A stretch of DNA of 64,000 nucleotides. Source: an uncultured bacterium (lineage in GTDB: Bacteria > Pseudomonadota > Gammaproteobacteria > Burkholderiales > Burkholderiaceae_C). Shown in pieces: positions 4,113 to 47,528 of the stretch; position 1 is the stretch's first letter, and each line of letters begins with the position of its first letter. The DNA is taken from the NCBI GenBank assembly GCA_963701725.1, contig CAVPAZ010000024.1, positions 47,580 to 111,579 of the forward strand, read 5' to 3'. Made by a program: the position numbers and the translations under genes. The notes under the pieces are model-generated. The model worked only from the letters and a program-made list of their open reading frames with translations. It was not told the DNA's origin and made no database searches.

Positions 4113-4553
4113 GTGAATCGCTACGAGCTGTGGCGTGCCAGCGCGATGCTGCTTGCCGCCAGCGCCAGCGCGGCGATGATCGCCTGGTGGTGCGCTCAGC
4201 CAGTGCCGACACCGCGCTGGGTGAGCGCCACCGCAGTAATCGGCACTCTGCTCTCACTGGCCTGCGGGGCAGGGCTGTGCCGGATGCAAGCTCTGACGCT
4301 GCGCTGGGACCGCCAGAACTGGCTGGTGATCCGCGACGGCGCTGCCGAACAGGCGGGCTCGCTGGCCGTGGCGATCGATCTGGGTGGCTGGATGCTGCTG
4401 CGTTTCGTGCCGGCAAGCACCGAAGTCGGCATGCCATGGCGTCGCAGGGCGGTCTGGGTCGCGCTGCAGCGGCGAGGTCTCGAGGCCCAGTGGCATGCAC
4501 TGCGCTGCGCGGTGCATTCGGCGCAACCGGCCTTGCCGCCTCTCGGCCTCTGA
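4113..4553 (+). CDS. Small membrane protein of unknown function, possibly YgfX/CptA-like (DUF1434)
   Basis: A GTG at 4113 in the frame of ORF 2790..4553 gives two N-terminal hydrophobic helices ([31 protein letters not shown]). The soluble tail WLVIRDG...[10 protein letters not shown]...WHALRCAV has an architecture resembling E. coli YgfX. Assigned from memory only. Confidence 0.4.
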
Positions 4554-4566
4554 GGTCGCTCCCCGC

Positions 4567-5173
4567 ATGAATGTCGACGTCGATGCACCGCTGATCGAAC
4601 GTGTCAAGCAAGGCGACACCCGCGCCTTCGAGATGCTGGTCGTGAAGTACCAGCGTCGGATCGAGCGCCTGATCGGGCGCATGGTGCGCGACGTCGATCT
4701 GGTGCCCGACATCGCCCAGGAGTCCTTTATTCGCGCCTACCGGGCGATTCCGCAGTTCCGGGGCGACAGCGCGTTCTACACCTGGCTGTACCGGATCGCC
4801 GTCAACACCGCCAAGAAGTCGCTGATGGAACTCAAGCGCGACCCACTGGTCTTCGAAACCGCGCTGGCTTCGCGCGACGAGGACGATGAAACTTCGCGTG
4901 TCGAGAACGAACTAAGCGACGGCGAGACGCCGGAGTCCATCATGGCCAGCAAGCAGATCGCGGGTGCGGTGAACTCCGCGATCGAGGCCTTGTCCGACGA
5001 TCTGCGCCAAGCCATCGTCCTGCGCGAGATCGAAGGCCTGAGCTACGAGGAGATCGCCGAGGTGATGAACTGCCCGATCGGTACCGTGAGGTCGCGCATC
5101 TTTCGGGCGCGCGAGGCCATTGCACAGCGGCTGCAGGCCGATGCTCGACGCGCGGGCGGGGGATCGGTGGTGA
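4567..5173 (+). pseudogene. rpoE: ECF sigma factor sigma-E (RpoE/AlgU type), with a frame break in the last ~12 codons
   Basis: MNVDVDAPLIERVKQGDTRAFEMLVVKYQRRI...FYTWLYRIAVNTAKK...LREIEGLSYEEIAEVMNCPIGTVRSRIFRAREAI. An extra base near 5135 hides the expected ...PMLDARAGDRW* (TGA 5171-5173). As given, the ORF runs on to 5235. Confidence 0.88.
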
Positions 5174-5206
5174 CGGAGGCCGTAGGTTTCAATCCGCGCT
5201 CCCGCG

Positions 5207-5899
5207 GTGGGGAATGTCATGCTCAACGGATCTGAAGACAGCGCGCGGTTCATGCAGGGCCTGTCGGCGCTGGCCGACGGTGAACTCGACCCGGCTGCGA
5301 CACTGGACGCCTGTGCGCAGTGGCACGGCGACGCCGTTGCGCGTGCATCGTGGCATGCCTATCACCTGATCGGCGACGTGATGCGGTCCGACGACCTGGC
5401 CACGGACACTGCGCATGACGCCAGCTTCCTGAAGGCCTTGCGCGTGCGCCTTGCCGTTGAACCGGTGGTGCTCGCGCCGCAAAGCGTGGCGGCCAGGGCT
5501 GACAGTATGCAGGCGGCTGCGGAGCGTCGCGCTGCGCGGGGTTCGCGCCGGTCCTGGCTGGGGCCGGCTGCCGTCGCGGCAGGCTTCCTGGCTGTCGCCA
5601 GCGTGTTGGTCTTGACCCGTGGCAGCGCGCCACTCGAGGAAACGAGCAGCATCCTGGCCGAATCCACAGCCCGCGGCAGCGCCGTTCTCGCTGCAGCATT
5701 GCCGGCGCCGGGCACTGCGTCGGCGATAGCCGCGAACGCGCCGGGGCGAGCACAGGCGCTCGTCGCCGACGGCAAGCTGCTGCGCGATGTGCGCCTTGAG
5801 CGCTATTTCGCCGCGCACTCGGAGTTCGGCGGCAGTTCCGCGCTCGGCGTTCCGTCCGGATTCCTGCGCGCGGCCACCAGCCAGACGCCGGATCGCTAG
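5207..5899 (+). CDS. rseA: Anti-sigma-E factor (RseA/MucA-like)
   Basis: Lies immediately after rpoE. The N-terminus LSALADGELD...WHAYHLIGDVMR is typical of the RseA N-terminal domain, and there is a central hydrophobic segment LGPAAVAAGFLAVASVLVL. The start could be 5207 or 5219. Confidence 0.75.
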   Translation: MGNVMLNGSEDSARFMQGLSALADGELDPAATLDACAQWHGDAVARASWHAYHLIGDVMRSDDLATDTAHDASFLKALRVRLAVEPVVLAPQSVAARADSMQAAAERRAARGSRRSWLGPAAVAAGFLAVASVLVLTRGSAPLEETSSILAESTARGSAVLAAALPAPGTASAIAANAPGRAQALVADGKLLRDVRLERYFAAHSEFGGSSALGVPSGFLRAATSQTPDR

Positions 5900-33664: not shown

Positions 33665-35419
33665 TCAAAAGAGGAAATACCGCTGTGCCATCGGCAGCAC
33701 CGCCGCCGGCTCGCAGGTCAACAGCACGCCGTCGGCGCGCACTTCGTAGGTCTGGGCGTCGATCTCCATCGCCGGCAGGTAGTCGTTGAGCAACATGTCG
33801 CGCTTGGTGACGTGGCGGCAGTGCTTCACTGCGGAAATACGCTTGTGCAGGCCCAGCGTCTCGCCCAGATCGCCCGCCAGCGCGGCCTGGCTCATGAAGG
33901 TGATCGAGCCACGCGCCAGCGCGCCGCCGAAGCTGCCGAACATCGGCCGGTAGTGCACCGGCTGCGGCGTCGGGATGCTGGCGTTCGGGTCGCCCATCGC
34001 GGCCATCGCGATGAAGCCGCCTTTCAGGATGAGTGAAGGCTTGACGCCGAAGAAGGCCGGCTTCCAAAGCACCAGGTCGGCCCACTTGCCGACCTCGATG
34101 CTGCCCACCTCATGCGCGATGCCGTTGGCGATGGCGGGGTTGATCGTGTACTTGGCGACGTAGCGTTTGGCGCGCGAATTGTCGTTGCGCGAAGAATCGG
34201 CCGGCAGCCCGCCGGGCCGCGTGTCGCCTTGCAGGCTGCCGCGCTGGACCTTCATCTTGTGCGCCGTCTGCCAGCAGCGCAGCACGACCTCGCCGACGCG
34301 GCCCATCGCCTGGCTGTCGCTCGAGAACATGCTGATCGCGCCCAGGTCGTGAAGCACGTCCTCGGCGGCGATGGTCTCGCGCCGGATGCGGCTTTCGGCG
34401 AACGCGAGGTCTTCGGCGATGTTCGCATCGAGGTGGTGGCAGACCATCAGCATGTCGAGGTGCTCGTCGACGGTGTTGACGGTGTAGGGCATCGTCGGAT
34501 TCGTCGACGAGGGCAGGAAGTTCGCCTCGCCGACGACGCGCAGGATGTCGGGCGCGTGGCCGCCGCCGGCGCCCTCGGTGTGGAAGGCGCACAGCGTGCG
34601 GCCCTTCGTCGCGCGAACAGTGTCCTCGACGAAGCCCGATTCGTTCAGCGTGTCGCTGTGGATCGAGACCTGGGTGTCGGTCTCTTCAGCCACCGCCAGG
34701 CAGGCGTCGATGGCCGAGGGCGTCGTGCCCCAGTCCTCGTGCAGCTTGAGGCCGATCGCGCCGGCCTCGACCTGCTGGCGCAGCGCCTCGGGCCGGCTCG
34801 AGTTGCCCTTGCCGAGGAAACCGAGGTTCATCGGAAAGGCTTCGGCTGCCTGCAGCATGCGCGCCAGGTTCTCGGGCCCCGGTGTGCAGGTGGTGGCAAA
34901 CGTTCCGGTCGCCGGACCGGTGCCGCCGCCGAGCATCGTCGTCACGCCGCTCGCTAGCGCCTCCTCGATCAGCTGCGGGCAGATGAAGTGAATGTGGCAG
35001 TCGATGCCGCCGGCGGTGACGATCATGCCTTCGGCAGCGATCACTTCGGTGCCCGGGCCGATCACGATGTCCACGCCCGGTTGCACGTCGGGGTTGCCGG
35101 CCTTGCCGATCGCGGCGATGCGCTGCCCGCGCAGGCCGATGTCGGCCTTGACGATGCCCCAGTGGTCGAGGATCAGCGCGTTGGTGATCACGCAATCCAC
35201 CGCCTCGCCGTGGCCCGGCCCGTTGACGCGCTGGCTCTGGCCCATGCCGTCGCGGATGGTCTTGCCGCCGCCGAACTTCACCTCTTCGCCATAGCCTCCG
35301 GCGCGCAGCGTGTAGTCCTGTTCGACCTCGATGATCAGTTCGGTGTCGGCCAGGCGCACCCGGTCACCGACCGTGGGGCCGTACATCTCGGCGTACGCGC
35401 GGCGGTGGATCATCGGCAT
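33665..35419 (-). CDS. ureC: Urease alpha subunit
   Basis: [18 protein letters not shown]..., [39 protein letters not shown]. The start was taken at MPMIHRR (35419) within ORF 33665..35494. Confidence 0.96.
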
Positions 35420-35490
35420 CACAGCGCTCCCTGGACCAGGCCGCGAAAGCCGACCACACGCCGCTCGCCGGCGCTCTTGCGGACTTCCGT
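35419..35490 (-). pseudogene. ureB: Urease beta subunit, 3'-terminal remnant only (last ~17-23 codons)
   Basis: The frame ending in the TGA that shares its A with the ureC ATG reads (TEVRKS)[17 protein letters not shown]. It is preceded by TGATGA (35491-35496) and no further UreB/UreA sequence. Confidence 0.7.
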
Positions 35491-35618
35491 TCATCAGCTT
35501 GGAGGTAGTGTTCGACGGCGAGCCGGATTACCTGCGACACCGGCAGTTTCTTGGCGACGGCCTTCGCCTTCACGTCTTCCAGGGTCTTGTCGTTGAGATA
35601 GAGACTCATTTGCGGCAT
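35490..35618 (-). CDS. Ribbon-helix-helix (CopG/antitoxin-like) protein. Its own stop is missing because the ORF runs across the junction.
   Basis: GAGGAGG lies 8 nt before ATG 35618. [43 protein letters not shown] shows the beta-strand plus two-helix RHH pattern. As given, the ORF continues to 35364 through ureB'/ureC sequence. Confidence 0.6.
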
Positions 35619-35751
35619 GAAACTCGCCTCCTCGTCTGATATACCATCACCATGGTAGAGAGCGTGTGCCGGAAAGTAAAGGGGATGTGCGGTAGCTGGC
35701 TTCCCCGGAACTTGTCGCGATGAAACGCCGTGAGCTGCGCCGGCGCGTGGA

Positions 35752-36214
35752 TCAGGCCTGGCGCGCCGGCGCGACCGGCACCTTGACGACGATCTTCCGG
35801 ACGGTGGTCGCGGCGCCGCGGCTGAGCTTGGGCATGTGGCCGTCCTGGGGGAAGAAGACGGCGAACGACCCGGGCCGCAGCGTGACGAGATCCACTTCGC
35901 CCTCGAGCGTCTCGAAGTCGGCGGCTTCGTCCCAGGCGGTCGGCCGTGCACGCGGCGCGGCTGCAGACGCCGATCTGCTCGATGCCGCTGGCGACGACCT
36001 GGACGTCGATGTGCCGGCGGTGGCACTCGATGAAGCCTTCGCCCGGCGCCAGCGTCCGGTAGCTGCTGACGAGCGCGAAGCACCCGTCGCCGAGGTCGTG
36101 GCGGCCGTCGGCGAGCGCCGCGAGGTCCGTCGCGTCGAGGAAGTCCGCCACGCGCGCGAAGAGCGGGTGCGCGCCGAGGTAGTCGCGGAAGCGGTCCAGC
36201 GTGTCGAGGATCAT
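35752..36214 (-). pseudogene. YhcH/YjgK/YiaL-family (DUF386) protein, with one frame break near 35,945
   Basis: MILDTLDRFRDYLGAHPLFARVADFL...GFIECHRRHIDVQVVASGIEQIG is in ORF 35606..36727. It is followed in another frame by AWDEAADFETLEGEVDLVTLRPGSFAVFFPQDGHMPKL...* (stop 35752-35754). Confidence 0.7.
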
Positions 36215-36233
36215 GGTGCGCCCGGACGCAGGC

Positions 36234-36886
36234 TCATGCGCGGGCCACGGCCCGCTCCGCGGCCTCGCAGAGCGCCTTGGACGGGTGGGCGCCGACGAGC
36301 AGCTCGCTGCCGCCGAAGACGAACGCCGGGACGGCCGTGATCTTGCGGCGGTGCGCTTCCGCGGTCCCCTCGCGCAGCGCGGCCTCGCCGCTCGCCGGCC
36401 GCGAGGGCGGCGTCCAGGCGCGCGGCGTCGAGCCCGACGTCGGCGAAGATCCGGCGCAGCACCGCGGGGTCGCCGATGTCGCGCAGTTCGCCGAAGTTCG
36501 CGCGGAAGAGCGCGTGGTGCAGCGCCTCGAAGCGCTCCGGGCTTTCGGCCTGGACGATCGCGCTCGCCGCGAGCGCGCGGTGCGTGTTGGCGAGCAGCGA
36601 CTCGGGGGTGCGCGTGCGCGAACTCGATCCCCTCGGCGGCGGCCTGCTGGCGCAGCCGCGCCATCGCGGCCGCGAGGTCGTCGGGGTCGTAGCCGAGCGC
36701 CGAGAGCGGCATCCCCGCCGGCGGCACCTCGGGGTGGATCTCGAAGGGGCGCCACGCGATCGCGAGCGCGATCCGGCCGGCGAGCGCGGCGCGGGCCTTC
36801 TCGAGGCGGACCGCCCCGATGGAGCACCACGGTCAGGTGTAGTCGCTGAAGACTTCGACGCGCACGACGGGCGGTTCGTGGCTCAT
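36234..36886 (-). pseudogene. DsbA/FrnE-like thiol-disulfide oxidoreductase. It has an in-frame TGA at the first Cys of CxxC (candidate Sec) and two frame breaks (~36,610 and ~36,395).
   Basis: GGAGGAGGAG lies 6 nt before ATG 36886. The frame reads MSHEPPVVRVEVFSDYT-TGA-PWCSIGAVRLEKARAAL...WRPFEIHPEVP..., the same phase as ORF 35606..36727. Later parts (ESPERFEALHHALF..., ITAVPAFVFGG...) are in ORFs 36211..36462 and 36234..36830. Confidence 0.7.
36801..36819 (-). promoter_or_regulatory. SECIS-like stem-loop 13 nt downstream of the in-frame TGA
   Basis: The mRNA reads UGA-CCGUGGUGCUCCA-UCGGGGCG-GUC-CGCCUCGA. The stem is 8 bp with one G-U pair, and the apical-loop G lies ~22 nt after the UGA. 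Confidence 0.3.
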
Positions 36887-36907
36887 GGGGTGCTCCTCCT
36901 CCCCGCG

Positions 36908-36936
36908 ATTCTGTGCCGTCCGGACAGGGGAGTCAA
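36908..36936 (-). promoter_or_regulatory. Sigma-70-type promoter in front of the DsbA-like gene
   Basis: The minus strand reads TTGACT (36936-36931), a 17-nt spacer, then CAGAAT (36913-36908), ~20 nt upstream of the SD. Confidence 0.45.
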
Positions 36937-36998
36937 ACCCGCGCCGCGGTTTCCTCGTCCCCCTTCGATGGCGCCGCCCGCGCCCGTTCGTGTTCCCA

Positions 36999-37032
36999 CT
37001 CCCCCATGGTGGCCGGGCGCACCATGGGGGAG
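36999..37032 (-). terminator. Perfect 13-bp inverted repeat hairpin after the truncated upstream ORF (no U-tract)
   Basis: ctcccccatggtg (36999-37011), an 8-nt loop, then caccatgggggag (37020-37032). On the minus strand it begins 34 nt downstream of the stop at 37066. Confidence 0.4.
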
Positions 37033-37065
37033 CATCGTCCTTCGCACCCGCCCGCGAAGCCGCGA

Positions 37066-37359
37066 TCAGATCGTCGTGTAGCCGCGGCCGCCGCGGCGCC
37101 GGCGGATCGTCCCGCCGTCGTCGTCGGCCGGCCGGCTGTCCTGCCGCGCCAGCCGGAAGGCGCACAGGTGGAGCAGCACCCCGTCGGCCGCCAGCGCGCC
37201 GCCGGAGATCGACCGGGAGCGAAAGCGCAGGTCCTCGCCGAGGCCCGCGGCCGGGAACGAGTCCACCTGCGCCTCGGCGGCCTGGCGCAGCAGCGAGGCG
37301 ACCTTGGCGCGCGTGGCGGGGGCCGAAGGCGGGACGCGCAGCTCCTCGATCGCGTCGAT
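37066..37359 (-). pseudogene. 5'-truncated ORF of unknown function (C-terminal 97 codons only)
   Basis: The frame is open right up to the 16S junction: IDAIEELRVPPSAPATRAKVASLLRQAAEAQVDSFPAAGLGEDLRFRSRSISGGALAADGVLLHLCAFRLARQD...*. I do not recognise the family. Confidence 0.4.
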
Positions 37360-38125
<766 letters not shown>

Positions 38126-38304
38126 AGTTGGCTGCCCTCCCAGACCCTTGCGGACCAGGTCGAGCAATTACCTCAACGCGAGAGCCATTCAATTGGCTCC
38201 ATATTGCGTTGTCGGTTGTCTTGTGTAGTGGACGCCGTCCAGCTCCTTGCGGAGCCGCGCGCGTCCGGCTGACACTCGACGGGTTGTGCGTGCGTTCTAT
38301 CTAG

Positions 38305-38316
38305 TTTTCAAAGAAC
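38305..38316 (-). promoter_or_regulatory. boxA-like antitermination element in the rRNA leader
   Basis: The minus strand reads GTTCTTTGAAAA, matching 9 of 12 positions of the E. coli boxA core GCTCTTTAACAA. It lies ~40 nt downstream of the P2 -10. Confidence 0.35.
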
Positions 38317-38360
38317 CGGCGCCTCTGCGGACGCCGCTCCCGCTCTTCAGCGGGCTTTCA

Positions 38361-38389
38361 ATCCTATCGTCGACTCTTGCCCGTGTCAA
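38361..38389 (-). promoter_or_regulatory. rRNA promoter P2
   Basis: The minus strand reads TTGACA (38389-38384), a 17-nt spacer, then TAGGAT (38366-38361). An A/T-rich UP-like stretch, gaaatttcgaaggcgatgaaaaaagagg, lies just upstream. Confidence 0.6.
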
Positions 38390-38568
38390 CCTCTTTTTTC
38401 ATCGCCTTCGAAATTTCTTTCTTTCGGCGACGCCTTGCCGACCCCTGGGAAGTTCCCGTGTGTCTCGGCTAGGGTTGTTGACGCGACTGGGAGCGTCAGA
38501 TGACCTCGACCCGAAGGCCTCAGTCGGCGCCGGTCTGTGGAAGACCCGGTGACCAGCGCGGATTTGTA

Positions 38569-38597
38569 GTTATACGCGATGCCGCCGACCCTGTCAA
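38569..38597 (-). promoter_or_regulatory. rRNA promoter P1
   Basis: The minus strand reads TTGACA (38597-38592), a 17-nt spacer, then TATAAC (38574-38569). Confidence 0.6.
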
Positions 38598-38821
38598 CCA
38601 CCTATTTCGCCGGCACCGTTCATTTCCCGCCCCTCCACCGGTGCGAACGTGCGCGCGCCGCCAAAGGGATCGGGATCATTGATCGATCCGCCGCGGAGAT
38701 CAAGCCCCAACTTCAGCCCCGACGGCGAACCGTGCGATCACCGAGCCGCCCGGCCTCCGCCAGGCCTTCCCGTGTGTCAGCCACAGACGCCTGACGTCCC
38801 GTTGGGCCGGCGTTGCTGGGC

Positions 38822-40108
38822 CTATCCGACCAACCGCACCACGTGCTGCTGCCTCGCGCCCCGCCGGACGACGAACACGCGGCCGCCTATGGCGACCGCC
38901 TGCGTCAACCGCTCGCGCTCGTTCGTCACGCGGCGGTTGTTCACGGACACGCCGCCCCCCTTCACGAGCCGCATGGCCTCGCTCTTCGACGGCGCCAGCG
39001 CGGTCTTCACGAGGACGTCCGCGATGCCGACGCCCTCGCCCTGGAACGCGTCCGCCCCCCATTCGGTCGACGGGACGTCCTCGAAGACGTCGAGGACTTC
39101 GTCGGCCGTCAACTCGGAGATCCCTTCGCCGAACAGCAGTTGTGATGCGCGCTCGGCCCGCTGCACGGCGCCCTCGCCGTGCACCAGCGCCGTGACGGCC
39201 CGCGCGAGCACGCGCTGCACCTCGCGCCGTTCGGGCGCGCGCGCCATCTCCTCGCCGAGCGCCTCGACTTCCTGCTGCGTGAAGAACGTGAAGTACTTCA
39301 GGTACGTCTGCACGTCGCGGTCGTCCGTGTTCAGCCAGAACTGGTAGAAGCGGAAGGGCGACGTCCGGCCCGCATCCAGCCATACCGTGCCCGCTTCGGT
39401 CTTGCCGAACTTCACGCCAGCGGCGGTGGTGACCAGCGGCATCACGAGCCCGTGCGCCCGGGCGCCGCCGCGCAGTTTCCGGATCAGGTCGCATCCGGCG
39501 GTGATGTTGCCCCACTGGTCACTGCCACCCAGTTGCAGCGTGCAGCCGTAGCGTTCGTTCAGGACCAGGAAATCGTAGGCTTGCAGCAGCAGGTAGCTGA
39601 ACTCCGTGTAGGAGATGCCGTCTTCGGCCTCGAGACGCCGCCGGACGGCCTCCTTTCCAAGCATGTAGTTCACGGTGAAGTGCTTGCCGACGTCACGGAG
39701 GAACGACATCAGGTCGACCGTCGCGAGCCAGTCGGCGTTGTCGACGATCTGTGCCGCGTTGGAGGCGCGTTCGAAGTCGAGGAACCGCGACAACTGCTCC
39801 CTGATGCCGACGAGGTTCGCGGCCACCTGCTCGCGGGTCTGCAGTTGGCGCTCCGGCGTCTTGCCGCTGGGGTCGCCTATCAGCCCCGTGCCGCCGCCGA
39901 CGATCGCGATGGGCCGGTGTCCGGCGCGCTGCATCCGCGCGAGCGCCATGATCGGGAGCAGCGACCCCACGTGCAGGCTCGACGCCGTCGGGTCGAAGCC
40001 GATGTAGCAGGTCAGCGACTGCGTCGCCAGCGCGTCGGCCAGCCCCTCCGTCGCCTCGTAGACCATCCCGCGCCATTTGAACTCGTCGAACACACTTGTC
40101 ACGGTCAC
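38822..40108 (-). CDS. tyrS: Tyrosine--tRNA ligase
   Basis: Intact 428-aa ORF with FDPTASSLHVGSLLP (HIGH region), KFGKTEAG (KMSKS region) and a C-terminal S4-like domain. Confidence 0.95.
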   Translation of the reverse strand: MTVTSVFDEFKWRGMVYEATEGLADALATQSLTCYIGFDPTASSLHVGSLLPIMALARMQRAGHRPIAIVGGGTGLIGDPSGKTPERQLQTREQVAANLVGIREQLSRFLDFERASNAAQIVDNADWLATVDLMSFLRDVGKHFTVNYMLGKEAVRRRLEAEDGISYTEFSYLLLQAYDFLVLNERYGCTLQLGGSDQWGNITAGCDLIRKLRGGARAHGLVMPLVTTAAGVKFGKTEAGTVWLDAGRTSPFRFYQFWLNTDDRDVQTYLKYFTFFTQQEVEALGEEMARAPERREVQRVLARAVTALVHGEGAVQRAERASQLLFGEGISELTADEVLDVFEDVPSTEWGADAFQGEGVGIADVLVKTALAPSKSEAMRLVKGGGVSVNNRRVTNERERLTQAVAIGGRVFVVRRGARQQHVVRLVG

Positions 40109-40439
40109 GATCCGTCGCTCCTTCGCGGCCTGCGCCGCGCTGCGCGGGGGCCGCGTCGCAGTCCCGCCCCCACACTACTCGGACAGGACAGCATAGCTGC
40201 CCCGCGCGCGGAACACACGTCCTGCGGGCGCGCGCCCACTGACCGCGGGGAGCCCGCTCCACGCGATCCCGATCTCGTCGGACGCGCGATGCCGCGGTCG
40301 CGCCGGGCGGACGCGAAGCGTGGGCGGGCGCAACCCGCCGTGACGCCAGGCCCTCCGTGGTCAGCGGAGCCAGTCTGCCGGCAGGCGCTCATGCCCCCTA
40401 TCGTCCGCGCGCGTCACGAAGGCGTTATAGGATCCGTCC

Positions 40440-41295
40440 ATGGGTCCCGGCCACGATCCGACCCGGCGCCGAGTGTTGGAATTGGCGACGGCCGTCGTCG
40501 TGGGCGCGGTCACCGGCTTCAACGCCGACACGGTGATTCACGAACAGTCGGCCCTCGGCGTGACGCAGCAGGCGGTCGATCTTCCCGCGTGGCCGGCCGC
40601 CATGGACGGCCTGACCGTAGGATTCTTGACGGACCTGCACCGCAGCGGCACGGTGTCGCGCGAGCTGGTCGATCGCGCCGTGGCCGAACTGTTGTCCCTT
40701 CGGCCCGGCCTCATCGTCCTCGGTGGTGACTACGTCTCGTTCGGCGAGCGCGCGTACGTGGACTCCGTCGCCGAGTCGCTGGCGCGCCTCCGGGCGCCGC
40801 ACGGCGTCTTCGCGGTGCTCGGCAACCACGACGACGAGCGTTTCGTACCGGCCGCGCTGGCTCGCGTCGGCATCGAGGTGCTGAGGGACGAGCGAACCCG
40901 GATCACGGTGGCCGGGCACGCTCTCGACCTGGTCGGCGTGCGCTACTGGACCCGCCGCGTGGCGGAGATCGCGGCGATGGTCGACCCGCAAGCAGCCGGC
41001 GCGCATCCTGCTCGCGCACGACCCGCGGCGCCTGCGCGAGGCGGTGGACCTGGGGTTTCCCCTCGTGCTGTCGGGGCACACCCACGGCGGCCAGGTCGTG
41101 CTCCGGGCTCGGGCCGTGGCGGCCCGCAAGTTCCCCATCGCGTCTGGGCTGCTGGCCCGCGACCGCACGCAGTTATTCGTCAGCCGAGGCATCGGGACGG
41201 TGTATGTCCCGGTGCGCTACAAGTGCCCGCCCGAAGTGGCGCTGGTCACACTCCGGCGAAGCGATCCCCAGCCACCCCAGCGGAATCCCGCATAG
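40440..41295 (+). pseudogene. Metallophosphoesterase (Tat-signal, YkuE-like), with a frame break near 40,985
   Basis: RRRVLEL twin-Arg N-terminus, then GFLTDLH, LGGDYV and LGNHD in ORF 40440... LAHDPRR...LSGHTHGGQ is in ORF 41044..41295. Confidence 0.75.
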
Positions 41296-41935
41296 GGGCG
41301 TCTATGAACGCCGCGACGAACCGGCGTCCCTCGACCACGCCATCCCGGCTGAAGAACCAGGGCGATGGCGCGGGGATACATCCGGTGCTCCTCGACGAGG
41401 ATGCGCGCCGCGAGCAGCGTCCTCGGTGTCGTCGTCGCGCACGGGCACGGCGGCCTGAGCCACGATGGGACCCGGCGTCGAGATCGGCGTTGACGAAATG
41501 GCACCGTGGCGCCGCTGACCTTGACGCCGTGCAGCAGGGCCTGCCGCTGCGCGTGCAGCCCGGGGAACGCGGGCAGCAGCGACGGGTGGATGTTGAGGAT
41601 GGCGTCTGGGGAACGCGTCGATGAAGGCTGCGCCGAGCAGCCGCATGAACCCCGCGAGGCAGACGAGGTCCACCGCGTGGGCCCGCAGGCGCGCCACGAG
41701 GGCGCGCGTCGAAGGCCGCGCGGGTGGGGAACTCGCGATGGTCGAGCGACGAGCGTCGGAACGCCGGCACGCCGTGCGCGCTCGAGGCCGCGGCGCGTCG
41801 GCGAGGTTGGAGATCACGAGCCGCGATGGTGGCGTCGAGTTCGCCCGCGGCGATGGCGTCGATGATCGCCTGCAGGTTGCTGCCCCGTCCGGAGATGAGG
41901 ACGCCGAGGCGCCGCGCGGTATCCCCGCGAGACAC
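41246..41935 (-). pseudogene. purN: Phosphoribosylglycinamide formyltransferase, with multiple frame breaks
   Basis: RLGVLISGRGSNLQAIIDAI (ORF 41246..41935), VDLVCLAGFMRLL and GPIVAQAAVPVRDDDTED (ORF 41302..41955), and ILVEEHRMYPRAIAL (ORF 41217..41504). The 3' end is approximate. Confidence 0.75.
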
Positions 41936-41944
41936 CGCGCCGAC

Positions 41945-42998
41945 TCAGACGACATAGCGCAGCCTCGCCATCGCCCGGCCGACGACCTCGCCGATCACGA
42001 GACCTCGCGTTCCCCGGCGGCCGCGCAGAGCCGCTCGCACGGGCCCGCGACATCGTCCGCGGCCACCGCGACGATCATGCCGATACCCATGTTGAAGGTG
42101 CGGCAGCATGTCGTCGCGGGGCACCTCCCCGCCGTCGTTGCAGGAACGCGAACAAGCGGCGGTGACGTCCACGAGGCGGTGTCGATGCACCGCCGACCTG
42201 CCGGCCGGCAGGATGCGCGGCAGGTTCTCCGTGATGCCGCCGCCCGTGATGTGCGCGAGTCCCTTGACGAGCGGTACCCCGCCTCGCATCGACGAGGCGG
42301 CCAGAGCACGGGCAGGTAGGAGCGGTGCGTCGCGAGCAGGGCCTCGCCGACGGTGCCCCCAGCGCGGGCACGTCGGTGTCGAGCTGCCACCGAGCTTGCT
42401 CGAAGACGAATGCGGCGGGCGAGCGAGTAGCCGTTGGTGTGCAGCCCCGAGGACGGCAGCCCGATCAGCACGTCGCCCGGCGCATGGCCGCGCCCGTCGA
42501 TCACGCGCGCCCGCGTCCACGCTGCCCGACGATGAACCCGGCGAGGTCGTACTCGCCGTCGGCATAGAAGCCTGGCATCTCGGCCGTCTCGCCGCCGAGC
42601 AGCGCGCACCCGTTCGCGCGGCACGCCCCGGGCGATGCCCTCGACGACCGCGACGGCGACGTCGGGCGACAGCCGGCCCGTGGCGAGGTAGTCGAGGAAG
42701 AACAGCGGGCGGGCGCCCTGCACGAGGATGTCGTTGACGCAGTGGTTGACGAGGTCCTCGCCGACCGTGTCGTGCCGGTTGGCGAGGAACGCGACCTTCA
42801 GCTTGGTGCCGACGCCGTCGGCGCTGGCGACCAGCACGGGCCCGTCCGCGGCGTGAGGGCTCGAGCGCGAACAGCCCGCCGAAGGCTGCCGAGCTCCGAG
42901 AGCACGCCCGGCGTGAACGTGCCTCGCGCGAGCCCCTTGATGCGGCGGACCACCTCGTGGCCCGCGTCGATGTCCACGCCGCTCGAACTGTAGTCCAT
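41945..42998 (-). pseudogene. purM: Phosphoribosylformylglycinamidine cyclo-ligase (AIR synthetase), with multiple frame breaks
   Basis: [21 protein letters not shown] (ORF 42798..42998). [52 protein letters not shown] and [11 protein letters not shown] are in ORF 41995..43830. Confidence 0.8.
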
Positions 42999-43028
42999 GC
43001 CTCAGGCTCGGCTGCCACGCTGCGCCGC

Positions 43029-44566
43029 TCAGGCAGGTGCCTTCGGCTCGCATCGGGCGCCCCGAGCCGACCGCGGGCGCCGTCGGGCTACGGTGCCGAG
43101 CCGCGTCCGGCACTGCGTCGGCTGCGCCCGTCGCTGCCTGGCCGTTCGGTTGCTGGAGCTTGAGCGCGAGCTGCAGGTACTCTCGCGATCGCGCGGGAAG
43201 GCGACGGGATAGTGTGCCGGTGTAGCACGACGTGCAGTAGGCACTGCCGCGAGGTCGCCGACGCCCGCCAGCAGGCCCTCGAGGCTCAGGTACGCGAGGG
43301 TGTCGGCGCCGAGGTACCTGCGCACCTCGTCGAGCGAGTGGGTCGCGGCGATCAGTTCGCGTGCGGCTGCGGCGTGTCGACGCCGTAGAAGCACGGGGAG
43401 ATGGTCGGCGGGCAACTGATGCGCACGTGGACTTCGCGCGCGCCGGCGGCGCGCACCATCTTGACGATCTTGCGGCTCGTCGTGCCGCGGACGATCGAGT
43501 CGTCGATGAGCACGACCCGCTGGCCCTCCAGGATGCTCGCGGACGGGGTTGAGCTTCACCCGGACGCCGAAGTGGCGGATCGACTGCTGCGGCTCGATGA
43601 ACGTGCGCCCGACGTAGTGGTTGCGGATGAGCCCCATGCGGAAGGGCATGCCGGCCTCCTCGGCGTAGCCCGAGCGCCGCGCACACGCCGGAGTCGGGCA
43701 CGGGCACGACGACGTCGGCGGCCACGCCGATCTCGCGCGCGAGCTGCCGGCCGAAGGCCGTCCGGGCCTCGTTGACGCTGCGTCCGAACACGAGGCTGTC
43801 GGGCCGCGAGAAGTACACGTGCTCGAACACGCAGTGCGCCAGCGGCTGCGGCGCGAACGGCGTGATAGCTGCGCAGCCCGTGCTCGGAGATCACGAGGAT
43901 CTCGCCCGGCTCGACGTCGCGCTCGTACGTGCGCGCCGATGAGGTCCATGGCGCACGTCTCCGAGCAGACGATGTAGCGCGTCGCCGAGGCGGCCCGAGC
44001 GCGAGCGGGCGGAACCCGTGCGGGTCGCGCGCCGCGATCAGGCGGTCGCGCGTCAGCAGCAGGAGCGAGTAGGCGCCGGTCACCTGCGCCAGCGACTCGA
44101 CGACCGCCTGCTCGGCCGGTCGGGCCTGCGACCGGGCGTACAGGTGCAGCACCACCTCGGTGTCGCTCGTGGTCTGGAAGATGGAGCCCTGCGCGCACGA
44201 GGTCGTGGCGCAGCTCGCCCGCGTTGACGAGGTTGCCGTTGTGGCAGACGGCGATCTGCCCGTGCGCGCAGTCGATGAGCAAGCGGCTGCGCGTTCTGCA
44301 GCTCGCTGTCGCCGGCGGTGGAGTAGCGCACGTGGCCGATGGCCGCGTGGCCCGGCAGCGCGGCCGAGCGTCGTCTCGTCGAAGACGTCGGCGACGTAGC
44401 CCATCGCGCGATGCACGCGGAGCCGCGCGCCGTCCGCGGTGGCGATGCCGGCGCTCTCCTGCCCGCGGTGCTGCAGCGCGTAGAGCCCGAGGTAGGCGAG
44501 GTTGGCCGCCTCGGGGTGCCCGAAGATGCCGAAGACGCCGCACTCCTCTTGTAACTTGTCGAACAT
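43029..44566 (-). pseudogene. purF: Amidophosphoribosyltransferase, with many frame breaks and an uncertain 3' end
   Basis: MFDKLQEECGVFGIFGH...ALQHRGQESAGIA and IFQTTSDTEVVLHL are in ORF 43556..44674. Later parts are in ORFs 43029..44807 and 41995..43830. Confidence 0.75.
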
Positions 44567-44861
44567 TGATGCTCCCCGGGTCCCGTGCCGCCGCGCGTCG
44601 CCTTCCGCATGAAGAAGATCGCCAGATCGCGATGTCGACGACGCCCGACGCGCGACGAGGGCGCCGGCGAGCATGGTGCCTGCGCGCGTCTCGTCGGCAG
44701 AGAGCGTCCCTGCTCCCGATCAGAGGCCGACGAACAGGAACATCGTGGCCGCCGAGATCATCAGCGACCGGCCGATGACCGCGAAGTTGCTCTGCGGGCG
44801 GCGGCATGCGTGCTCTCCGAGTTCGTTCGAACCGCGACGGCCTCGTGCGGGCGTCGGGCCG

Positions 44862-46195
44862 CTACCCGGCGACGACCGCGCTCCGCGCTGCGCCTGGAAC
44901 ACGCGGTCGAAGATGGCGTCGACGTGGCGGAGCTGTACGTGGAGGTCGAAGCAGCGCCCGATCTCCGCCGGCGACAGCACCGCCGTGACGTCCGGGTCCT
45001 GCAGCAGCAGCGTCCTGGAAGTCCACGCCGCTTGGTGGGACGCGCATGGCGTTGCGCTGCACCCACGCGTAGGCCTGCTCTCGCGAGACCCCGCGCCGCG
45101 CCAGCTCGAGCAGCACGGTCCCCGAGAACACCACGCCGCGCGACCGATCGAGGTTCTCCCGCATCCGCTCGGGGTGGACCACCATGCCCTCGACGATGCG
45201 CGTGAAACGCCGCAGCATGTGATCCAGCGCGAGGAAGCTGTCGGGCAGGATCACCCGCTCGACCGACGAGTGCGAGATGTCGCGCTCGTGCCACAGCGCG
45301 ACATTCTCGATCGCGGCCATGGCGTTGGCCGCGGACGAGCCGCGCCAGCCCGCACACCTGCTCGCAACCGATCGGGGTTGCGCTTGTGCGGCATCGCCGA
45401 GGAGCCCTTCTGGCCCTTGCCGAACGGCTCCTCGACCTCGCCGATCTCGGTCTTCTGCAGGCCCCGGACCTCGAGCGCGAACTTCTCGAGCGAGGCGGCC
45501 ATGATGGCGAGCGCGCACATGCAGCTCGGCGTGGCGGTCGCGCTGGATGACCTGCGACGACACCGGGGCCGGCGCCAGGCCCAGCGCTCGCAGACCGCGC
45601 GCCTCGATGGCCGGGTCGAGGTGGGCGAAGGTGCCGACGGCGCCCGAGAACTTGCCCACGCGCACGGCGCTCGCGCGCGCGCGCCGGACGCGCTCGACGG
45701 CGCGGCCGACCTCGGCGTACCACAGCGCGAGCTTCAGCCCGAAGGTCATCGGCTCGGCGTGCACGCCGTGCGTGCGGCCGATCATCGGCGTGCGCCGGTG
45801 CTCGATCGCGCGGCGCCTCGATGGCCTGGCGCCAGCGCCGCGAGCTGTCTCGAGCACCAGGTCGCACGCCTCGACCATCTGCAGCGCGAGCGCCGTGTCG
45901 ACGACGTCCGAGGAGGTGAGCCCGAAGTGCAGCCACCGCGCCGACGGGCCCGACGTGCTCGGCGACGGCGGTCGTGAACGCGATCAGATCGTGCTGGGTG
46001 GTCTGCTCGATCTCGTCGATGCGGGCGATGTCGAAGCCGCCGTTCTCGCGGATGTCGCGGGCCGCGGCCGGCGGGAACGATGCCCGCCTCGGCCATGGCC
46101 TCGGCCGCGGCCACCTCGACGCGCAACCAGGCCTCGAACCTGCGCTCCTCGCTCCAGATGCGCCCCATCTCGGGCTGCGTGTAGCGGCGAATCAT
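44862..46195 (-). pseudogene. purB: Adenylosuccinate lyase, with many frame breaks and an approximate 3' end
   Basis: [27 protein letters not shown] (ORF 45782..46246), [16 protein letters not shown] and [15 protein letters not shown] (ORF 44862..45878), and LRHVDAIFDRVF (ORF 44720..44980). Confidence 0.75.
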
Positions 46196-46206
46196 GCGGT
46201 GCGCCT

Positions 46207-47528
46207 TCAACGCTGGCGCCTGGTCCCGTGGACCCGCCGCCGGCACGTCGGCGTGCGGCCGATCCGCAGGCGCAGCGGCTGAGCGTCGATCCCGCCGTCG
46301 GCCCCGCCGCCGAGCACCGTCGCCGCCAGCGCGCCGTCGCGAACAGATCGCGCGCCACGCGCAGCACGTCGTCGGCGGTGACCGCCTCGATGCTGGCCAG
46401 CGTCTCGTCGAGCGTGTAGTAGCGGTCGAAGTAGAGGTCCTGCCGCGCCAGGTGGGTCATGCGGCTCGAGGTGCTCTCGAGGCTCAGCATGAGGTTGCCC
46501 TTGAGGTGGTCCTTCGCGCGCCGCAGCTCCGCGTCCGGCACCGGCGCGGCCGTGAGGCCACGCAACTCGGCGACGGCGAGGTCGAGACCTCGGCGACGTT
46601 CTCGTTCGCGCACCCGGCGTAGATGCTGAGCATGCCGGCGTCGCGGTACATGCTGCAGGCCGCTGAAGACGGAGTAGGCCAGGCCACGCTTCTCGCGGAT
46701 GTTCTGGAACAGCCGTGAGCTCATCGAGCCGCCGAGGATGCGTGTTGAGCACGTAGGCGGTGAAGCGGTCCGCGATGGTTCTGCGGGTACGACCGGCGTG
46801 CCCAGGCAGAGTGGCTCTGCTCGAGGTCCTTGGTCGCGCGTCAGCAGCGCCCGGCAGTGGCCGTCGGCGGCGTCTCGTCGTAGGCCGCGCCGGCTCGGGC
46901 ACGCCGCGAAGGCCGCCGCGACCAGGTCGCGCAACCGAGCGTGCTCGAGGTTGCCCGCGGCGGCGACGACGAAGTTCGGCGCGACGTAGGCGCCGCGCGA
47001 AGTAGTCGCGCAGCGCCGGCTGCGTGAAGGCCTCGACGGTCTCGCGCGTCCCGAGGATCGGACGGCCCAGCGGGTGACCCTCCCAGAAGTTCTGCGTGAA
47101 CAGCTCGTGCACGAGGTCGTCGGGCGTGTCCTCGACCATCTTGATCTCTTCGAGGATCACCTTCTTCTCGCGCTCGATGTCGTCCGTCCAGCGAACGCGG
47201 GCCGGCGGACGAGGTCGGCCAGCAGGTCGACCGCGAGCGGCAGGTGCTCGTCGAGCACCTTGATGTAGTAGCCGGCGTACTCCTTCGACGTGAACGCGTC
47301 GAGCTGCCCGCCGATGGAGTCGACGGCCTGCGCGATCTCCTCGGCCGACCGGGTGGTCGTGCCCTTGAAGAGCATGTGCTCGACGAAGTGCGCGATGCCG
47401 CCCTGCGCCGTCGGGCTCGTGGCGGGAACCGCGGGTGCAGCCACACGCCGATGCGACACCGAGCGGACGTGCGCCATGGTCTCGGTCGCGAGACGGAGGC
47501 CGTTGTCGAGGGTTTCGCGGGTGATCAT
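46207..47528 (-). pseudogene. M16-family zinc peptidase (insulinase-like), with multiple frame breaks
   Basis: GIAHFVEHMLFKGT (HxxEH) is in ORF 47157..47573, and ILEEIKMVEDTPDDLVHELF is in ORF 46207..47160. The remainder is spread over ORFs 46841..47446 and 45984..46934. Confidence 0.75.

Follow-up and report, generated by a model that had tools for sequence, protein, structure and literature searches.

Chimeric long reads are ligation concatemers or unsplit consecutive molecules and are able to bridge contigs. Assemblies of mixed communities typically stop at rRNA operons. For long-read metagenome assemblers, inter-phylum chimeric contigs, including merges of at least three organisms, and indels without read support have both been documented (bioRxiv 10.1101/2025.04.22.649783).

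The joint described here, at which a 16S rRNA gene ends in mid-sequence, was compared with these cases. It resembles the published inter-genome chimeras in the abrupt switch of taxonomy and composition, in the presence of more than two sources, in frame-breaking indels, and in a marker-based contamination estimate (1.44% here) that does not flag it. Those chimeras were diagnosed by read clipping, whereas the breakpoints here were set by comparison with relatives. As would be expected of chimeric long reads, two blunt joints at arbitrary in-gene positions surround a short and poorly polished bridge; unlike in such reads, no adapter remnant was visible at the joints. Similar to the usual breaks at rRNA operons, the Acidobacteriota part of the contig ends inside its own operon, but the contig does not stop there and runs on, apparently falsely, into unrelated DNA. 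Genuine rRNA pseudogenes and 16S intervening sequences also interrupt an rRNA gene in mid-sequence; in contrast, the 3' part never resumes here, the fragment shows no decay, and relatives have no native rrn operon other than this one.

The window (the whole 64-kb stretch of DNA analyzed) corresponds to positions 47580-111579 of C24, a 123-kb contig carrying approximately 40 kb of Acidobacteriota DNA in a metagenome-assembled genome (MAG) of 31 contigs and 2.87 Mb with a completeness of 65%. The source data were presumably long reads, judging from the sizes of the contigs, the pattern of indels, and a 390-kb contig that contains a complete rRNA operon. Eight tyrS-linked loci of the Vicinamibacterales type were taken from long contigs, chosen through the TyrS relatives of the gene just upstream of the 16S rRNA gene, and scanned with Rfam. 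The closest relative of the 16S/tyrS side was L011, a locus of the Acidobacteriota MAG MFD00032.bin.3.232 (genome G021). The closest relative of the other side of the joint, L101 (a 127-kb JGI metagenome contig), was found via the neighboring DUF386 gene; for its comparison with the middle piece, BLASTN results were used, as tblastx gave mostly GC-rich noise. The features of the locus are listed in Table 1.

Table 1. Features around the two joints, with positions in the window, strand, and the basis of each assignment
Feature	Position	Strand	Basis
ureC, intact, native to the genus of the MAG	33665-35419	-	Amino acid identity
ureB 3' end, Burkholderiales type; ureA and the rest of ureB missing	35419-35475	-	UreB similarity
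Joint B/A (accurate to a few bases): end of the middle piece against the last ~18 ureB codons	35475-35476		UreB similarity
Ribbon-helix-helix (CopG-type) gene, 5' part of ~47 codons, cut by the second joint	35476-35618	-	Weak Pfam RHH_1 match
DUF386 (YhcH/YjgK/YiaL) gene, one 1-nt insertion near 35941 shifting the frame	35754-36214	-	Pfam, alignment with L101-L103
DsbA/FrnE-like gene, TGA at the first Cys of CxxC, two frameshifts	36234-36887	-	Three-frame translation, Pfam
ARPP-1 (PF20208/DUF6569) gene, 3' fragment, codons ~237-332 and stop	37066-37359	-	Pfam, homologue alignment
Joint C/B: 16S end meets ARPP-1 start	37359-37360		Three-way comparison of the window, L011, and L101
16S rRNA gene, 5' fragment, nt 1-766 of ~1553	37360-38125	-	RF00177, BLASTN
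rrn leader and promoter region upstream of 16S	38126-38604	-	Unbroken BLASTN alignment to L011
tyrS, Acidobacteriota type, intact; precedes the rrn operon in the donor lineage	38822-40108	-	Amino acid identity

The 16S rRNA and ARPP-1 fragments and their joint

A single small-subunit rRNA match was found in the window by cmscan with Rfam (minus strand, start at 38125, 705.5 bits), and no large-subunit rRNA, 5S rRNA, or tRNA was found across the 64 kb. The alignment is of high confidence in its printed part, which extends to approximately model position 700. The gene reads …GAGAGTTTGATCCTGGCTCAG… at its start and can be traced to …GGTGGCGAAGGCGGCATCCTGGACCGGCATTGACGC, and the fragment is not a functional copy, which would cover model positions 1-1533 of RF00177. 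In BLASTN of the window against the eight related loci and the MAG's own 16S rRNA gene, the similarity stopped at 37360 in seven of the nine comparisons and at 37362 in the other two; the breakpoint corresponds to nt 765 of the 1553-nt gene in L011. The fragment shared 96.2% identity with L011 (one gap) and 89-92% with the seven other relatives. The alignment with L011 was unbroken over window positions 38604 to 37360 (93.3% over 1248 columns), and with the leader conserved as well, neither the fragment nor the leader shows decay.

The remainder of the operon was found in the relatives. In all eight, tyrS was followed by a complete 16S rRNA gene and two tRNAs (Rfam), and complete 23S and 5S rRNA genes came after the tRNAs in seven, the L016 contig ending within the 23S rRNA gene. 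The tyrS-linked 16S rRNA gene was the only native copy in each of the five relatives whose genomes were checked. As a cell would thus be left without the 3' half of 16S, 23S, and 5S rRNA, a real cut at 37360 would probably be lethal. The earlier note had reported the rest of the 16S, 23S, and 5S rRNA genes as absent; accordingly, neither the window nor the 31 contigs contained an Acidobacteriota-type 16S 3' half, 23S, or 5S rRNA gene, although an absence from a genome that is 65% complete is not decisive. BLASTN with the rrn operon of L011 against the MAG genome matched only the rrn region of C3 and the fragment on C24.

A second 16S-23S stretch (G021:C20:58870-60421, locus L107), approximately 79-81% identical to the tyrS-linked one, was observed in the genome that carries L011. 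As its 16S is only ~81% identical to the first, this extra copy seems to be foreign, and MAG MFD00032.bin.3.232 thus seems to hold foreign or chimeric DNA as well.

On the other side of the joint, an open frame (IDAIEELRVPP…YTTI) begins at 37359 and ends with a TGA at 37068-37066. Its Pfam match covered ARPP-1 profile positions 228-297 of 297 (31.2 bits; cut-off, 27), and its first residue corresponded to residue 237 in homologues that are 332-333 aa long; the complete domain (~297 positions of a ~330-aa protein) is thus not present. Because the last in-frame stop before the frame is a TGA within the 16S words CATTGACGC and the first possible start is a GTG 31 codons in, the frame has no start of its own, and the fragment is truly 5'-truncated. 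In BLASTN, it was 84% identical at the nucleotide level to L101 over 293 nt, with window positions 37360 to 37068 matching L101 positions 5144-5433 within the gene at 4437-5435. This ARPP-1 gene of L101 is intact (999 nt), and the similarity starts 707 nt into it. The 5' part of the gene was not found elsewhere in the MAG genome, which is not decisive at 65% completeness. Homologues of ARPP-1 are present in several Acidobacteriota genomes.

From the sequence letters, the earlier note had placed the end of the 16S rRNA gene at 37360, joined to a 5'-truncated protein frame that starts at 37359 and runs from IDAIEEL to a stop at 37066. This description proved accurate to the base, and the stop was found as described.

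The joint in the window reads …CATTGACGC/ATCGACGCGATCGAGG (with the slash at 37359/37360), the natural continuation of the 16S rRNA gene in L011 is …CATTGACGC/TGAGGCGCGAAAGC, and ARPP-1 of L101 reads …GGCTACGCC ATCGACGCGATCGAGG across the same position. Two unrelated sequences thus meet bluntly at this point. No bases are inserted, and the microhomology is at most 4-5 nt, ACGC(C); no shared sequence or repeat longer than ~5 nt was found at either joint. Each flank tracks an independent natural sequence up to the same base, namely, the rrn operon of the eight relatives on one side and ARPP-1 of L101 on the other. The exact 32-mer across the junction had no match in JGI metagenome contigs, among which the source sample may not be included.

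Target-site duplications and terminal repeats were searched for at the joints, and only chance GC-rich repeats were found; Pfam scans of pieces of the middle block identified none of them as a transposase. An insertion sequence or transposon insertion was rejected, as terminal inverted repeats, target-site duplication, and transposase were all missing and the Pfam-matched genes were ARPP-1, DSBA, DUF386, and RHH.

Origin of the flanks and of other contig ends

TyrS encoded upstream of the 16S fragment was 90% identical in amino acid sequence to that of L011 and 60-73% identical to those of dozens of Vicinamibacterales MAGs; its identity to TyrS of the genus to which the MAG belongs was only 29-34%. 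The synteny with L011 extended over 8 kb upstream of tyrS. A second tyrS, of the native type, is located on C22 of the MAG, and the two are ~30% identical. Likewise, the MAG has its own complete 16S rRNA gene on C3, which is ~78% (77.5-78.7%) identical to the fragment, and the bin thus contains discordant duplicates of single-copy markers (two 16S rRNA genes and two tyrS genes). At the opposite end of the locus, UreC was 88-93% identical in amino acid sequence to those of four genomes of the same genus. An exact-protein look-up of TyrS and UreC of the window in public assemblies returned nothing on record.

Two side observations concern these flanks. At window positions 40,100-47,400, upstream of tyrS, the genes syntenic with L011 are broken up among two or three frames, which suggests that the Acidobacteriota part of the contig has many 1-nt indel errors; L011 may carry errors of its own. 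An Rfam match to 5_ureB_sRNA (RF02514; 90.6 bits) was observed at 34960-35258 on the plus strand, antisense to the 5' part of ureC, and it is probably explained by conservation of the urease coding sequence and not by a genuine sRNA in this organism.

The composition of C24 was examined by two measures. For the third principal component of the tetranucleotide frequencies, z ranged from -2.6 to +1.0 in the chunks of C24 up to 80 kb and from +3.4 to +7.9 beyond 80 kb. The 5-mer log-likelihood ratio (LLR) per kb switched at the block from about -15 to between +10 and +25. For controls outside the training set, the LLR was +5 to +15 for Vicinamibacterales loci and -15 for a Burkholderiales relative. 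Both the gene-level taxonomy and the k-mer composition change over the block, with a Burkholderiales-type genus on one side and Acidobacteriota on the other.

An Acidobacteriota-like 5-mer signature, like that of the right half of C24, was also observed on other contigs of the MAG: C1 (~140.6-152.9 kb), C5 (1-5.7 kb), C11 (44.6-47.5 kb), C22 (51.3-53.2 kb), and C27 (79.8-90.2 kb). On C27, DNA up to ~78.2 kb matched the MAG's own genus with 81% identity; from ~80.1 kb, the identity was 72-74% to Acidobacteriota genomes versus 69-70% to the own genus. On C1, the matches to DNA of the own genus ended at ~136.7 kb. Further chimeric joints in this MAG are therefore likely.

The middle piece and the second joint

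The stretch of approximately 35476-37359 (about 1,884 nt) carries, in minus-strand order, the 3' fragment of ARPP-1, a DsbA/FrnE-like gene, a DUF386 gene, and the 5' part of a ribbon-helix-helix (RHH) gene. The earlier note had described a 1.9-kb piece between two joints; the two joints and the size held, and the second joint was relocated from 35,49x to ~35475/35476.

Read through over three frames, the DsbA-like gene gave one DSBA domain (profile positions 2-186 of 191, 118 bits), whereas its single pieces scored at most 18 bits. The TGA at the first Cys of its CxxC motif (…DYT*PWC…) lies in frame at 36834-36836 on the minus strand. The N-terminal 88 aa of the DUF386 protein matched Pfam with 73 bits. 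The DUF386 gene was 88% identical at the nucleotide level to L101-L103, the window having a single extra base versus these three contigs, and the read-through protein was 81% identical to P0001. The RHH_1 match was weak and N-terminal (E 7.6e-4, 19.8 bits, under the cut-off of 20.5). The RHH frame continues into ureB-derived sequence, and the similarity to UreB of the same-genus genome G003 (sequence AGDRKVVGFRGLIQGSLT*) begins at window position 35473. Neither ureA nor the 5' part of ureB was found elsewhere in the MAG genome, which at 65% completeness is not decisive. The middle piece contains three 1-nt frameshifts (two in the DsbA-like gene and one in the DUF386 gene), and the genes just outside it (tyrS, the 16S fragment, ureC, and phaC) are clean of such breaks.

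Searches of 20 relatives of the MAG gave no DNA match to the middle piece, and its LLR was +7 as compared with an average of -12.5 for native windows of similar GC content; because of these two results, it is considered not native to the MAG. The LLR of L101 was +16. The source of the middle piece would be a high-GC organism that is Acidobacteriota-like by composition. In five Vicinamibacterales-type genomes, only a 114-nt match was found; the piece is absent from G021, and none of the relatives has it downstream of its rrn operon. Among 301 Acidobacteriota genomes, seven had the DUF386 protein, at an identity of at most 42%, and the 16-kb relative L101, when compared with 301 Acidobacteriota genomes, gave scattered matches of 64-81% without synteny.

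Since ARPP-1 and DUF386 are on the same strand and ~2.6 kb apart in L101, the middle piece resembles a single natural fragment that was cut at either end. What lies between these two conserved genes varies: in L101 (4437-8474), it is a TPR gene plus a 344-aa gene without a known family, and in the window (35754-37359), it is the DsbA-like gene.

Explanations of the joint and consequences for the MAG

The joint at 37359/37360 is very probably an inter-genome chimera of DNA from different soil bacteria, made during sequencing or assembly, and not a structure present in any cell, with the qualification that the middle piece resembles the 16S side in composition, so that taxonomy alone does not establish two organisms and the two could be places in one genome. 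This reading is favored because both partners are cut without a functional product while every relative examined has these loci intact, because the cut would remove the only 16S 3' half, 23S, and 5S rRNA, and because the 16S fragment and its leader lack decay. It is also favored because another joint that cuts a gene and certainly connects different phyla is found at a distance of 1.88 kb, because neither joint has repeats, target duplications, or mobile-element genes, and because the middle piece is more error-laden than its flanks, as expected of a sequence covered by very few reads. The recurrence of the foreign signature at other contig ends of the MAG points in the same direction, as does the documentation of this class of error for long-read metagenome assemblers (bioRxiv 10.1101/2025.04.22.649783). 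The artificial join of unrelated pieces proposed in the earlier note is thus supported by the collinearity of both flanks, the switch in taxonomy and k-mers, and the duplicate 16S and tyrS genes.

According to this reading, C24 would consist of three pieces. The first (~83 kb) would come from the MAG's own Burkholderiales-type organism and end within ureB; the second would be the 1.88-kb fragment of the other high-GC organism with Acidobacteriota-like composition; the third (~38.6 kb) would come from a Vicinamibacterales-type Acidobacteriota genome and end at nt 766 of the 16S rRNA gene. The Acidobacteriota path may have stopped within the rRNA operon at a low-coverage contig end. One or a few chimeric long reads, i.e., a concatemer of three unrelated fragments with the short one in the center, would then have bridged the contig ends, and the thinly covered middle piece would have been poorly polished, leaving 1-nt indels.

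We infer that such a chimeric read, rather than an error in the assembler graph, most likely made the bridge. A graph error without any chimeric molecule, in which the path was lost in the tangle of 16S repeats common to many species and was then wrongly linked to other paths of low coverage, would still make the joint an artifact, and we regard it as the less likely route, possible but doubtful. Ribosomal RNA operons are classic break points, several contig ends of the MAG look foreign, and assemblers do make chimeras and sequence unsupported by reads (bioRxiv 10.1101/2025.04.22.649783). However, neither joint has a shared sequence longer than ~5 nt that could mislead an overlap graph, and two blunt joints around 1.88 kb fit a physical or read-level concatemer better.

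A real rearrangement within an Acidobacteriota genome (deletion, inversion, or illegitimate recombination) that left an rRNA pseudogene, with only the ureB joint being artificial, is improbable. The middle piece and L101 are Acidobacteriota-like in composition, Acidobacteriota genomes do encode ARPP-1 homologues, and the microhomology at the joint would also fit illegitimate recombination. Nevertheless, the event would have hit what is the sole native 16S rRNA gene in five of five relatives and would probably have been lethal, the fragment has not decayed, and the middle piece is neither in G021 nor next to the rrn operon of any relative. A rare real event would also have had to occur by chance 1.88 kb from an inter-phylum artifact, and the excess of errors in the middle piece over its flanks fits a thinly supported bridge. 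That a Vicinamibacterales-type bacterium actually carries an rrn operon cut at nt 766 of the 16S rRNA gene and fused to an ARPP-1 fragment is very improbable. If the joint were true, it would mean a recent large rearrangement in a lineage normally having a single rrn operon, and would imply an undetected second operon or an unusual rRNA supply.

Horizontal transfer of ~40 kb of Acidobacteriota DNA with half a 16S rRNA gene into a Burkholderiales chromosome, disrupting ureB, is more improbable by far, the sole observation in its favor being the contiguity of the pieces in the deposited contig. Against it, housekeeping genes of the block follow the gene order of the donor (tyrS and the 8 kb upstream, as in L011), and the block keeps the donor composition and ends the contig; integration signatures are lacking, the host's tyrS and 16S rRNA genes are duplicated, and the foreign signature recurs at other contig ends. 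The least credible reading, with a negligible probability, takes the 1.9-kb piece for an intron or intervening sequence within a functional 16S rRNA gene. Nothing beyond the interruption itself speaks for it; the genes of the piece are ordinary protein-coding ones, including a truncated one, and the only other small-subunit rRNA gene is the native one on C3. The known intervening sequence that the earlier note had named as an alternative was excluded, as the rRNA never resumes after the insert and no 3' half follows anywhere in the window or genome.

The joint is thus very probably a data-quality warning only: a public Burkholderiales-type MAG with a contamination estimate of 1.44% holds ~40 kb of Acidobacteriota DNA, and this foreign block carries a 766-nt 16S fragment and a second tyrS. 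If the contig is taken at face value, the MAG may be wrongly identified from its 16S rRNA, gene transfer between phyla may be falsely claimed, and an 'rRNA pseudogene' and a 'broken urease operon' may be falsely reported. The bin needs to be split at the joints before use, and several other contig ends seem to be foreign as well.
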